This document shows, in pieces, positions 1,834 through 52,576 of a stretch of 64,000 bases of DNA. Both the position numbers and the translations under genes were made by a program. The stretch comes from Acidobacteriota bacterium (GTDB lineage: Bacteria; Bacillota; Syntrophomonadia; Syntrophomonadales; DTU052): NCBI GenBank assembly GCA_050259595.1, contig JBLNAX010000037.1, positions 11,315-75,314 of the forward strand. The letters are read 5' to 3'. How positions within the stretch are numbered: the stretch's first letter is position 1; the number at the start of each line of letters is the position of its first letter. The notes beneath the pieces are model-generated. The model had not been told where the DNA came from, made no database searches, and saw only the letters and a list, made by a program, of their open reading frames with translations.

Positions 1834-2030
1834 AGCTTAATGACAAAAGCAAATCTCGGCGTTATTTCGCAAAGCCCGTTCAATCAACGTACTCCACAAA
1901 ACGACTTGACGGCGAGCTGTTTCGCCGGAATGCCGACGGATCGAATCTGGCGCTTGCGTCTGATGAGCAGCGGCCAATCACGGGCTTTTCTCATGCCTTG
2001 ATCTTCGCTCCCGTCATCAACCTGACCAAA
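1834..2030. mobile_element. MITE-like non-autonomous element, long copy
   Basis: The ends AATGACAAAAG... and ...GTCAT form imperfect terminal inverted repeats. The arms match the second copy at 29912-30022 over about 50 nt on the left and about 40 nt on the right. No transposase is present. The 66-aa track ORF at 1801-2001 has no RBS or coding character. Confidence 0.55.
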
Positions 2031-2058
2031 GAATAAGGCCTCGTTGGAGGCCTTATTC
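2031..2058 (+). repeat. 28-bp terminator hairpin, right copy, with U-tract
   Basis: GAATAAGGCCTC-GTTG-GAGGCCTTATTC followed by TTTTG. This is probably the functional terminator of the upstream gene. Confidence 0.8.
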
Positions 2059-2060
2059 TT

Positions 2061-2090
2061 TTGACACCCTCCGATTGGTGCTGATATAAT
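2061..2090 (+). promoter_or_regulatory. Sigma-A-type promoter of hpt-guaA
   Basis: TTGACA (2061-2066), 18-nt spacer, TGaTATAAT extended -10 (TATAAT at 2085-2090). Confidence 0.7.
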
Positions 2091-2111
2091 CCACCTATGG
2101 GAGGGATTAAT

Positions 2112-4280: not shown

Positions 4281-4624
4281 TATGAGCTGTTAGACTTTTT
4301 TGATTAGTCTCTTACTTACCCTAAATCCTTCGATTATCTGACACACATCGAGATATCAATTCAGCTTCCAAGCGTTCGACAATCAACTGTAATTGAATGC
4401 CGTGACCATTGTTGCGGTATTACAGAGACTTGCGGCTGGTGAATATCCGCGAGCATCCTGTCAGAATTGCAGGGAATTTTGTTCTTGCCCCTTATATGTA
4501 AAATTCTTCATAGTATATAGTGACGAATCAAATCAAGGAATAATTTCCAAACAAATTGACAACTTATTATAAATTTCGTCGGGGAAGGGATCAGAGAATA
4601 AACAGAACAAAAGGGGTTACATTA

Positions 4625-5029
4625 ATGCATTCAAAAATCATGTATGTTGAGTTGAAAACAGGATATCTTCATAACGGTCCGGCTTGGATCGGTCGGGTAA
4701 TGCTGTCTAAGGAAGGCCAGACTGCTTATTTTAATCAAAGAGAATTCTGCAAGGCACGCAGTTGGAGGGCAAACTATTGTGACATTGAAACTGGTGAGGA
4801 GTACTGGATATCAGAGGTCAAGAAGAAGGGGCGCGATCGTCATGCGGCGGGATTTGGCAAAATCAATATCGATGAAAAGGTAGTTGCTGAGTATCTGAGA
4901 ATGACCAAACAGAAAGCCCTTGATCGGAAAAAGTTTAAAGAAGTCATCATCTTGGACATTTTTCCGAGTGAAAGACACCTCAGGTCCAATAGCCAAACTG
5001 ACGGCCTTGGTGCGGCGCTGGGCTTGTGA
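4625..5029 (+). CDS. Conserved hypothetical protein
   Basis: The ATG at 4625 has AAGGGG upstream. The sequence MYVELKTGY..NGPAWIG...YWISGVKK-like resembles a recurring uncharacterised family. The track start at 4556 lacks an RBS. Confidence 0.55.
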   Translation: MHSKIMYVELKTGYLHNGPAWIGRVMLSKEGQTAYFNQREFCKARSWRANYCDIETGEEYWISEVKKKGRDRHAAGFGKINIDEKVVAEYLRMTKQKALDRKKFKEVIILDIFPSERHLRSNSQTDGLGAALGL

Positions 5030-5392: not shown

Positions 5393-5694
5393 TTTAGCCC
5401 CTCCAATTTTATCTTTTAATATTTAGTCGACACAAGAATATTTTACCTTTTTTCTACTAAATTAGTCTACCATTAGTTTGCGAAATATTCACTCCTTTTG
5501 TCTTAACTAACCGAAATATGACGATAAATAACCATAATAGTCGTATTAAATAACCAAAACAAAAGAGATATCCGGCGTACTGGTTAGAACATTAAATTTG
5601 CTTTATAATGTTTAATATAAATAACACCTTGATCAGAAGGACCGGTATTTGGAGAGTTACGGACCATTGATGATATGGACTTCGGCGCGGTGAC

Positions 5695-7744: not shown

Positions 7745-8029
7745 CCCCTTTTTAATATGGATAATTATAACATGAGTGCGATTTCACTACTATAACTGAA
7801 AATTTGGTAATTTCGGTTAACTTAATATGTTTTTAATATTTATTAATATAAATTTAATCGAAATGACCCATTTATTTAACATTCAGTATTTAGAATATTT
7901 ATGTAGACTCATAGAGAAATATTTGGCGTGGAATTATATGGCAATTGCTGAATATAGATTTGTAAGGTGAGTTGTTTAGTGGTATGGATTCATGTGAACA
8001 CTGTTGTTTAGAATAAGGAGGTATTTACA

Positions 8030-8200
8030 ATGGATTTGTTGATCAAAGCATCGGCGAGTAAAATAATCCGGGCCTTAATGGATCTAGAAAGCGAGATTCA
8101 GGTCAAAATGAACCGTTATCCGGGGGCTGGTTTGGAAAATGAGCTAGCGGAAGTCCGCTCGGCCATTCACCAGTTAAGATCCAGGCTCGGAGACCTTTAG
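8030..8200 (+). CDS. Small hypothetical protein (56 aa), absent from the ORF track
   Basis: ATG preceded by AAGGAGG with 7-nt spacing. It encodes MDLLIKASASKIIRALMDLESEIQVKMNRYPGAGLENELAEVRSAIHQLRSRLGDL, which is predicted helical. Confidence 0.5.
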   Translation: MDLLIKASASKIIRALMDLESEIQVKMNRYPGAGLENELAEVRSAIHQLRSRLGDL

Positions 8201-30656: not shown

Positions 30657-31391
30657 CTATTCTGCTGCGATCATTGCCGGTTCAGTCTCAACTTCCCGCA
30701 TCACCAGTACACCCATCCAAAGATAAGCTAAAAGCAACGACATGAATAATACATTGGGGTACGGGAAACTAGGCCAAATCAACTTTTGAATCGTATCGAT
30801 TATGACCGGTAGGGTCATGGCATAGAGAGCAATTATTTTTCCGGTTTTAAAGTCGATTTGAGCTTTCTGGATTCTCGCGAACACCAGGCAAATGCCTCCG
30901 CCCAGCATCATAATGAGTACCTTGGCAAACCAATTATATGTGATTCCCAGTAGTAGAATTGATGAATGGGTGAATTGAATCCACTTCAGCATTCTCTCGG
31001 AAATGTTGGTGGTCAAACTGACAGCTGTGGCATCAGCCGGGGCTTTGACTCTCTGATTTTCCGGCAGTTCCGATAATTTCAAGCGGAGTTGGGCTGATTC
31101 CTCAAAAGAACGTGGTGGCAGATATTGGTTCTGGGTTTGCAGGTTTATGTTGTTAGTCACGGCAAAGCCATTGGCTAGATTATAAAAGCCTACCGGAGAT
31201 TTACTGAGTTTGTCTCGGACTGATCCGGCTCCTTCGTCCATTTGTACCATGAACATCAGAAGAACAGGAAATGCAAGCACGAGTACTAACCAGAATAGAT
31301 AACTAGTATGATGTTCGGCAGGTTCCTGGGTAAACTCCTTATAAGAGTTCACGCTGAAAATGGCATCTCTCACACGCAACAATATCTCCAT
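30657..31391 (-). CDS. Polytopic membrane protein, unknown function (DUF1189-like by architecture)
   Basis: 244 aa: an N-terminal cytoplasmic segment, one TM, an extracytoplasmic loop, then a cluster of TM helices. Confidence 0.55.
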   Translation of the reverse strand: MEILLRVRDAIFSVNSYKEFTQEPAEHHTSYLFWLVLVLAFPVLLMFMVQMDEGAGSVRDKLSKSPVGFYNLANGFAVTNNINLQTQNQYLPPRSFEESAQLRLKLSELPENQRVKAPADATAVSLTTNISERMLKWIQFTHSSILLLGITYNWFAKVLIMMLGGGICLVFARIQKAQIDFKTGKIIALYAMTLPVIIDTIQKLIWPSFPYPNVLFMSLLLAYLWMGVLVMREVETEPAMIAAE

Positions 31392-51220: not shown

Positions 51221-51610
51221 ATGAAGGTCAAGGAAGCCATGCATGCTCCTGTAATTACGGTTACACCGCACAACTCGCTACAGGAAACTCTAGAGATCAT
51301 GAGAGACAACAATTTGCGCAGGCTGCCGGTTTTAGAGGGTGAAGAGCTCGTAGGCATCATCGTCCAACACGATATCGAAAAAGCGTTGCGTCGTCCAGGA
51401 ACGATCTATGAGTCACCGGTGGATTGGGTGATGACGAAGAAACCGGTTTATTCAATCGAGCCTGAGGCAAGTATTGTTGAAGCGGCACGCATGATGAAAG
51501 ATTTGAAAATAAGTGCGATACCAGTCGTAGAAGCAGAAAAACTAGTAGGAATAATATCCGACACAGATATCTTGGAAATCTTCATAGATGTTATGCAACG
51601 GGATAATTAA
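51221..51610 (+). CDS. CBS-pair domain protein
   Basis: Two CBS repeats (RRLPV......GIIV..DI and ISAIPVV......GIIS.TDI). The ATG at 51221 follows GGGGGAGG. Confidence 0.8.
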   Translation: MKVKEAMHAPVITVTPHNSLQETLEIMRDNNLRRLPVLEGEELVGIIVQHDIEKALRRPGTIYESPVDWVMTKKPVYSIEPEASIVEAARMMKDLKISAIPVVEAEKLVGIISDTDILEIFIDVMQRDN

Positions 51611-51632
51611 ATATCCCGTTTGTTCTTTTTTT
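51598..51632 (+). terminator. Rho-independent terminator of the glgA/CBS unit
   Basis: ACGGGATA-ATTAAA-TATCCCGT (the stop codon is in the loop) followed by TTGTTCTTTTTTT. Confidence 0.8.
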
Positions 51633-51649
51633 GGGATCATTCTCAAGAA

Positions 51650-51900
51650 ATACTAGAAGGCCCGCAAGGGGGAATCACAATCAAGACCGGAAGAACCGGA
51701 AATGACCGAGCTCTAAAAGAGCCTAAAGACAAACCTTGCGAGCCTAGTGGAAGCCAGAAGCAGCAGACTCCTGAAAAGGAGAATTCAGGACGTTACTCGC
51801 TCCGTAAAGGAGGAAACCTGAACTATTTGAGTCCGAGGACTCAAGCCGCTTGCTGGCTTCTAATAGTATTATGTCCAGGGACTCAGAAGCTATACTGTTG
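51650..51900. ncRNA. Candidate structured non-coding RNA of unknown class
   Basis: Two long-range helices (51658-51669/51734-51745 and 51750-51764/51845-51860) each enclose perfect local hairpins. There is no coding potential. The strand is unresolved, although the mismatches favour the minus strand. Confidence 0.4.
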
Positions 51901-51924
51901 ATTTAATGGATAATCGTGGAAAGT

Positions 51925-52437
51925 TTATTGTTCGTTGTTCAGGTTATATTTACTGATAATAAAAGCAGCGATCAAGCCACCTATGAGGGCGGTAGCCAAC
52001 TGAAGGGGTCCAAAGCTCAGGGCGATGGCTTTTGCTGCCTTAGCTGGGAGACTGGTAATTCTGGATGCTAATATAAAATTAATAGAGCTGTAAAAAACTA
52101 GAAACTTAAAAACTGCCGCCAATATAACTGCAATATAATTGTTGAATCTTCTAGCATAATAAAAGACTATTATGAGTATTATATTGGCTACAATAATAAC
52201 TGGAATCAAAAATGGGAAACCCATTACCCCTAAGACAAACGCTAGTATTGGGGTGAACAAGCCTATAGTAATGCCGGAAGTAATTCCGACATAGGCTACT
52301 GCGATTATAAGGAGGGCGTTTACGACCGAACCGGTGAGGATCTGGCCGAATGGAGGAGGAAGCTTAACATACTGAAAAATCAACGCTATAGCTAGTAATA
52401 CCGCTGTGCGAGTCACATACCTTAATGAAGGATTCAT
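51925..52437 (-). CDS. ECF-transporter S-component-like small membrane protein (substrate unknown)
   Basis: About 170 aa with 5-6 TM helices and an N-terminal R.....A.L.A.A pattern. The ATG at 52437 follows GGAGAG. Confidence 0.6.
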   Translation of the reverse strand: MNPSLRYVTRTAVLLAIALIFQYVKLPPPFGQILTGSVVNALLIIAVAYVGITSGITIGLFTPILAFVLGVMGFPFLIPVIIVANIILIIVFYYARRFNNYIAVILAAVFKFLVFYSSINFILASRITSLPAKAAKAIALSFGPLQLATALIGGLIAAFIISKYNLNNEQ

Positions 52438-52576
52438 TTTAGTCACTCTCCGTTTCTAATGCTTTAGCCCATTATAAGATATATTAGATGGTTCGTCAGC
52501 AATCAGGAATTCATAAGAGGAAAAGCCGTGATGAAGGCGAACTCTAGATAAAGTTCAAAACCGAGGAGGTTGGAGA

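Follow-up and report, generated by a model that had tools for sequence, protein, structure and literature searches.

A putative family of structured minus-strand RNAs with a sigma-F/sigma-G-type promoter at the glgA-CBS locus of Syntrophomonadales

The stretch of DNA analyzed here (the window) is 64,000 nucleotides long and contains a spacer at 51641-51924 that is flanked by the stop codons of a CBS-pair gene and an ECF-S transporter gene. Further neighbours of this locus are glgA and a HAD-like gene. The main features are as follows.

51206/51221-51610, plus strand: CBS-pair gene (PF00571)
51597-51620: bidirectional-looking hairpin between the RNA described below and the CBS gene
51645-51861, minus strand: predicted RNA gene of about 215 nt, placed by the match of covariance model R1, promoter geometry and a U-rich tail
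51925-52446, minus strand: ECF-S transporter gene (PF12822)

The spacer segment occurs once in the 64-kb window, and a scan of the window for tRNA and tmRNA genes found none. The original prediction proposed that this segment encodes a novel structured RNA. Its folding is markedly better than that of dinucleotide shuffles on both strands: for the 284-nt segment, plus-strand folding reaches -92 kcal/mol (z -4.28) and minus-strand folding -101.6 kcal/mol (z -5.90), with 0 of 200 shuffles as good in either case, and the copy in the related locus L004 has a z-score of -6.66. All helices listed in the original prediction were recovered at their positions, both by direct reading and in minimum-free-energy (MFE) folds, and, as had been claimed, the two mismatches in the long helices read C.A and A.C on the plus strand but become G.U when the minus strand is read.

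Searches in related genomes, the homologue check proposed with the original prediction, returned matches in syntenic loci. A glgA search across one genome per GTDB species yielded six loci at 76-79% identity, assigned to Syntrophothermus, Syntrophomonadaceae or Syntrophomonadales, and nhmmer with the window minus strand as query gave matches in five of these six, downstream of glgA-CBS and in three of them twice. Scanning metagenomes for the pattern of invariant columns returned 20 loci, of which the covariance model accepts eight, from digester, bioreactor and activated-sludge samples; the other 12, which it does not accept, were discarded as chance matches. The same pattern scan of viral contigs gave no match. 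Additional loci (L054-L058, L063 and L064) were collected through relatives of the CBS protein. In all, at least 13 syntenic loci in Syntrophomonadales-like MAGs and metagenome contigs carry homologues. Model R1 matches the window at 51645-51865 on the minus strand (142 bits, E 1e-36) and recognizes 20 full-length copies at 76-199 bits, plus L063 and L064. So far, the family is confined to Syntrophothermus-like Syntrophomonadales.

The MAGs that contain loci L001-L005, L017 and L018 (JBLMZT, JBLMZW, JBLMZI and others, PRJNA951521) are named Acidobacteriota, Candidatus Saccharibacteria, Chitinophagales and Solirubrobacterales. The glgA and CBS genes of these loci are 76-97% identical to those of Syntrophothermus/Syntrophomonadaceae MAGs, and the taxonomic labels are probably wrong.

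Sequence comparison of the copies revealed strong covariation, which the original prediction had named as a check of its claim. In a plain MAFFT alignment of 10 copies analyzed with RNAalifold, which is independent of the model, compensatory changes are found in 18 of 51 pairs. The R1 alignments comprise 17 and then 20 distinct copies, with pairwise identities of 51%-95% (median 66%). In these alignments, which are fitted to the model and so biased towards it, but with which the independent MAFFT/RNAalifold result agrees, 92.6% of cells are paired and double changes affect 33 of 62 pairs, or 39 of 62 with 20 copies. None of 500 shuffles reached any of the measures, and sliding the partners by 1-3 columns reduced pairing to 30-49%. 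Every helix contains at least one covarying pair. Furthermore, the modelled pairs include 78 G.U and 18 A.C combinations; because G.U pairs outnumber A.C in this way, the RNA strand is the minus strand of the window, which bears out the earlier guess of a minus-strand transcript.

These data also bear on whether the segment has a function at all. A 93-aa plus-strand ORF spans it, and the segment might on this basis be viewed as a decayed gene remnant, or else as a mobile element, a repeat or a fold that arose by chance. However, the ORF has no Pfam or NCBIfam match and is not open in any homologue, including the 88%-identical L004 copy, and no reading frame is conserved across the copies on either strand. 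Protein coding was therefore rejected, in agreement with the earlier view that the spacer has no coding potential. Apart from its single occurrence in the window, the RNA is found at the syntenic site only and is absent from the viral contigs scanned, and the fold z-scores range from -5.9 to -6.7. With compensatory changes in 39 of 62 pairs, a non-functional origin is effectively refuted and may be regarded as negligible.

The segment is also absent from catalogued RNA families, as the original prediction had supposed. A cmscan of the whole window against Rfam 15 at the gathering threshold returned nothing, nor did a search of 51500-52100 at E<=10, and three homologous loci searched at E<=1 yielded nothing beyond an unrelated TPP riboswitch in L036. 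Membership of the ylbH/CsfG, raiA, 6S, Y-RNA-like or other catalogued families is therefore not detectable. The L036 riboswitch (8010-8114, minus strand; RF00059, 70 bits) is of the ordinary type and lies about 3.5 kb from the RNA array of that locus. Homologues, covariation, strand asymmetry and the Rfam result jointly support the core of the original prediction, a novel non-coding structured RNA on the minus strand, and we are highly confident that a genuine structured ncRNA gene is present.

The RNA consists of two multi-helix domains followed by a U-rich tail. For each helix, the number of base pairs with double changes, taken on alignment A6, is given.

51750-51860, minus strand: Domain A, four-way junction (P1-P4), found in MFE folds; 86%-100% of cells paired
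51845-51860 with 51750-51764, minus strand: P1, closing Domain A; double changes in 7 of 12 pairs
51827-51844, minus strand: P2 hairpin; 3 of 4 pairs
51782-51824, minus strand: P3/P3b hairpin with internal loop and bulge; 1 of 5 pairs in P3, 3 of 5 in P3b
51768-51781, minus strand: P4 hairpin, CUCCU/AGGAG; 2 of 6 pairs
51657-51746, minus strand: Domain B (P5-P8), with the same helices in MFE folds of the window, L004 and L015 copies
51734-51746 with 51657-51669, minus strand: P5, closing Domain B; 10 of 13 pairs
51709-51723, minus strand: P6 hairpin; 5 of 5 pairs
51680-51708, minus strand: P7/P8 hairpin, with inner CCGG/CCGG at 51687-51699; 6 of 10 pairs
51645-51656, minus strand: U-rich tail UCUAGUAUUUCUU, which follows P5 and is the likely termination region

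Across the family, P1 spans 12-16 bp and P5 11-13 bp. P2 is capped by UUCG or CUCG, the P3/P3b hairpin has an asymmetric internal loop and a 3' bulge, and a short CCAYN linker lies between Domain A and Domain B. CU-rich elements are found in P4 (CUCCU with a pyrimidine U/C loop), at the junctions (UUCCA/UUCC) and in Domain B (CUUCC). Most of the invariant nucleotides are located inside helices P1, P3 and P4, not in single-stranded seed regions. One natural deletion variant was observed: the distal tandem copy of L043 (1493-1674, minus strand) lacks P4 (CUCCU/AGGAG) entirely and retains the rest.

The genomic context of the RNA is highly regular. The loci share the order glgA, CBS gene, one to three RNA copies convergent with CBS, an optional ECF-S gene and a HAD-like gene. 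In every locus that carries the RNA, it is located directly downstream of the CBS gene and convergent with it, and its other flank is variable. The RNA is independent of the ECF-S gene, since most homologous loci have the RNA and lack ECF-S; loci that retain it in this way are L014-L017, L019, L036 and L053. The ECF-S protein itself has few relatives. Its orthologue in L004 (84%) has the same ECF-S/spacer/CBS arrangement, in which the spacer core is 88% identical and the flanking spacer has diverged. Orthologues at 51% (L006/L007, in a different context) and 42% (L013) have no such RNA, and the L006 spacer folds about as well as shuffles (z -0.48); an ECF-S-linked RNA was rejected on these grounds.

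The same comparison weighs against the idea that the structure is a 3' UTR or stabilizer of the ECF-S mRNA, or a plus-strand 3' element of the CBS gene, and thus not an independent gene. The interval from the ECF-S stop codon (51925) to the structure shows no terminator, so that read-through is possible in the window. Nevertheless, the RNA is kept where ECF-S is missing, the spacer downstream of the 51%-identical ECF-S orthologue carries no RNA, and each tandem copy has its own promoter box. For a plus-strand CBS element, the excess of G.U over A.C pairs (78 versus 18) points to the opposite strand and the CBS terminator lies upstream of the element. We consider such a dependent element very improbable.

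The ECF-S gene is preceded by a sigma-A-like promoter (CTGACG-17-TATAAT; 52471-52499, minus strand) that is conserved in L004. A riboswitch in the ECF-S leader was rejected, as only about 30 nt of leader follow this promoter and Rfam gives no match.

In L018 (5986-7483), glgA-CBS is kept, and the RNA is missing together with the ECF-S and HAD-like genes; a long minus-strand ORF follows the CBS terminator in place of the RNA. The RNA can therefore be lost.

Tandem arrays contain one to three paralogous copies, each with its own promoter box and U-rich tail. Copies within one locus are 64-68% identical to each other, whereas orthologous proximal copies are 87% identical across species; the duplication is thus an old one in which both copies were retained. 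The promoter and tail retained by each copy argue for independent functional genes. In addition, six independent short-read contigs (L054-L057, L063 and L064) end about 40 nt upstream of an RNA copy, which would be expected if assembly broke at further tandem copies.

A single conserved sequence element lies upstream of the copies and, in the window, directly upstream of helix P1.

51891-51895, minus strand: -35 box GTATA of the sigma-F/sigma-G type; G[C/T/A]ATA in 20 of 20 copies
51867-51876, minus strand: -10 box GGACATAATA; near-invariant GG[T/A]CATAATA in 20 copies

The window promoter thus reads GTATA-14-GGACATAATA. This bipartite box (G[C/T/A]ATA, 14-15 nt, GG[T/A]CATAATA) precedes all 20 copies, each tandem member included, and is the sole conserved upstream sequence; the spacer and the sequence further upstream vary. 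Its distance to P1 is fixed, with the box ending 4 nt before the YAG that opens P1. The original prediction had placed a promoter inside the end of the ECF-S gene (51975-51947). That site is not the conserved one and was not returned by the promoter scan; the box at 51895-51867 supersedes it.

The promoter geometry also sets the probable transcript boundaries. The 5' end would lie at about 51861-51859, 6-8 nt past the -10 box, and the 3' end at about 51645, in the U-rich tail. The earlier claim of a structured RNA holds and its size does not: rather than about 250-284 nt, the predicted transcript measures about 215 nt (roughly 51861 to 51645). A terminator scan found no canonical simple-hairpin terminator for the minus-strand RNA, which ends in the branched P5 followed by the U-rich tail; CUUCUAUUUUU-like tails directly follow P5 in nearly all copies. 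The P5 closing helix and this tail would together end the transcript.

The position of the 3' end raises the question of an effect in cis, in which transcription into the 3' end of the CBS gene would lower its expression by antisense action or interference at a specific developmental time. Such a role would suit an RNA that is always convergent with and immediately downstream of CBS whatever its other flank, and in L016 and L058 the U-rich tail borders on or overlaps the stop codon of CBS. However, all loci are syntenic relatives, and common descent can explain the adjacency. Simple interference also has no need of an elaborate structure that covaries, or of as many as three tandem copies with individual U-rich ends, and in the window the hairpin at 51597-51620 separates the RNA from the CBS gene. 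We therefore regard a mainly cis-acting RNA as improbable; a cis effect on the convergent CBS gene as an additional role is possible.

The promoter boxes closely resemble those of forespore sigma factors. In Bacillus subtilis, the sigma-F consensus is GYATA at -35 and GGnnAnAHTR at -10 in the form in which bioRxiv 10.1101/2023.12.01.569620 quotes Wang et al. 2006. With a spacing of about 14-15 bp, the strict GYATA form of this B. subtilis consensus is matched by 14 of 20 copies, and by all 20 if GAATA is allowed (GHATR-14/15-GGnnAnAHTR). The sigma-G consensus is reportedly GnATR-17/18-CATnnTA, a pattern that, in this form, fits 19 of the 20 copies. Sigma-F promoters are distinguished by a G preceding the -10 box and sigma-G promoters by an A following it (PMC3789822); both are present in the -10 region of the family, as in promoters read by both factors. 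The motif is specific to the RNA: within the 64-kb window, a single site matches both the sigma-F and the sigma-G pattern, at 51895-51867 on the minus strand, and in 158 kb of related loci 19 of the 24 pattern matches lie directly upstream of the 19 RNA copies. From these sequence matches, we infer that the promoter is of the sigma-F/sigma-G type.

A different sigma factor could nevertheless read the promoter of a real minus-strand RNA, which would then not be forespore-specific. Sigma-A might act through the CATAAT contained in the -10 box, a 5/6 match to TATAAT, but a TTGACA-like -35 box and a TG extension are both missing. [quoted passage not shown] The -10 of the CBS-proximal copies (CATAATATA) fits the sigma-K-like pattern CATAnnnTA, whereas window-type and distal copies read CATAATAC and break it. 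Sigma-E promoters have the ATA of the -35 box (PMC3789822), but positions 5-6 of their -10 consensus (CATACAnT) are unmatched here. Moreover, two invariant features, the G in the -35 box and a GG located two nt upstream of CAT, are hallmarks of the sigma-F type. Reading by another sigma factor is thus unlikely, though less so than a mainly cis-acting role.

A further sigma-F-type pattern (GAATA-14-GGAGAGATTA) occurs in the window at 31445-31417 on the minus strand and ends 26 nt upstream of a DUF1189 gene (30657-31391, minus strand). This site could be a further forespore promoter, or it could have arisen by chance.

Given a promoter of the sigma-F/sigma-G type, synthesis of the RNA would most likely be limited to the forespore, during sporulation or an equivalent programme, and we consider forespore specificity probable. 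No sporulation genes are found among the 20 window ORFs annotated between 29 and 63 kb. In Syntrophothermus lipocalidus, the core sporulation set is near-complete, with only spoVG, sleB and cwlJ missing (PMC3533761), and the species itself has been described as non-sporulating.

Elements that may be distant, simpler relatives of the family were found in other loci, although the evidence is thin. The covariance model matches them weakly, in L059, L061 and L062, and all are two-domain RNAs. They come from a second lineage, which has the gene order CBS, peptidase C92, a 147-aa gene and HAD and a CBS protein of 52-56% identity. The L061 element (4454-4626, minus strand) scores 26 bits (E 1.7e-6, filters off) and has a fold z-score of -5.9; GAATA-17-CACAATA lies upstream, and its 5' end reads UAGAAACCGG. 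The L062 element (1873-2099, minus strand) scores 15 bits, has GTATA-17-GATAATA upstream and reads UAGAAACAGG at its 5' end. Both adjoin the HAD-like gene. The L059 element (5505-5649, plus strand; identical in L060) scores 19 bits, begins with GAGAAGCCAG and shares its P1 sequence with the core family; no such promoter is present upstream of it.

Taken together, these results suggest that the locus contains a stand-alone minus-strand gene whose product is a structured non-coding RNA about 215 nt long. It would represent a new family of structured sRNAs that are transcribed independently, are specific to the forespore and act as functional analogues of CsfG from Bacillus. We assign this reading as a whole a probability of roughly 0.6. 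By analogy with CsfG, the RNA would act in trans, as a forespore riboregulator or as a protein-binding RNA. The CU-rich elements (CUCCU of P4 with its pyrimidine loop, and the UUCC junctions) could pair with ribosome-binding sites, and the location of most invariant bases inside P1, P3 and P4 suits an RNA that binds protein or adopts a tertiary fold no less than one that acts by base pairing. Any particular molecular mode is accordingly doubtful, with base-pairing and protein binding about equally plausible. A more speculative variant would be a new class of complex-folded RNAs of about 200 nt, made only in the forespore and serving as part of an RNP or in a biochemical activity during spore maturation or dormancy, perhaps with the simpler Clostridia relatives in L059, L061 and L062. 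This idea draws on the two junction domains, the sequence-invariant helices P1, P3 and P4 and the old tandem paralogues, and we hold it to be somewhat less likely still.

To our knowledge, very few sporulation-specific non-coding RNAs have been found, almost all of them from Bacillus, and we know of no defined target for CsfG 15 years after its discovery. The RNA described here would be a second, CsfG-unrelated, covariation-supported family with a forespore promoter signature, in syntrophic fatty-acid-oxidizing Clostridia of anaerobic digesters. If this is true, forespore-specific structured RNAs would be a recurrent feature of endospore development, and the family would offer a compact study model whose structure and promoter are clear and which includes natural paralogues and deletion variants. 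The covariance model and alignment are ready for an Rfam entry. Judged from its sequence features, the RNA would belong to a known general kind, sporulation-sigma-controlled sRNAs, and form a new family outside CsfG, raiA and any Rfam family.

Several known systems share individual features with this RNA. Tandem multicopy "sibling" sRNAs, such as LhrC1-5 of Listeria and Qrr of Vibrio, have their own promoter and terminator per copy and are maintained in evolution. The family resembles them in its evolutionarily maintained tandem paralogues, which have individual promoters, but LhrC1-5 and Qrr are simple hairpins of about 100 nt with exposed seeds, whereas the units here are two-domain RNAs of about 200 nt conserved mainly in helices. 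The raiA motif RNA (RF03072) is a trans-acting RNA of about 200 nt from Bacillota with multiple junctions, many conserved nucleotides and sporulation-linked phenotypes (PMC10861870). In contrast to it, the present RNA has no Rfam match and neither comFC nor raiA as neighbours; raiA RNA is constitutive and present in more than 2,500 species, and no pseudoknots were identified in the RNA described here. A further precedent is Bvs196/S357 of Bacillus velezensis and B. subtilis. Bvs196 is a forespore-specific RNA of 294 nt that is driven by sigma-F and sigma-G, independently transcribed, conserved and stable in structure, and implicated in spore properties (PMC9147052). It is restricted to Bacillus and located in the hinT-ecsA spacer; both size and context differ from those of the present RNA.

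The closest comparison is with CsfG itself, an sRNA of B. subtilis and other endospore formers that depends on sigma-F and sigma-G and is conserved across spore formers (PMC3574147; PMC8583004; PMC4152353). Conserved CU-rich stretches and an association with Hfq have been described for CsfG, for which no target is known (PMC3574147; PMC8583004); in Rfam it corresponds to the opposite strand of RF00516, the "ylbH leader" family. The two RNAs share the promoter type, by consensus match, and the present RNA has CU-rich elements (CUCCU of P4 and the UUCC junctions). However, RF00516 matches neither strand here even at E<=10, and CsfG measures about 136 nt, compared with about 215 nt and two multi-way junctions in the present RNA. 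The loci differ as well, ylbG-ylbH for CsfG and glgA-CBS here (neighbours glgA, CBS-pair, ECF-S and HAD-like), and the present RNA occurs in one to three tandem copies and is known only from a narrow Syntrophomonadales clade. Conserved CU-rich stretches in loops or interhelical regions are a criterion for CsfG-like RNAs; the RNA here has CU-rich elements, and most of its invariant bases lie in helices. The best reading is that the RNA would be a functional analogue of CsfG, not a homologue.
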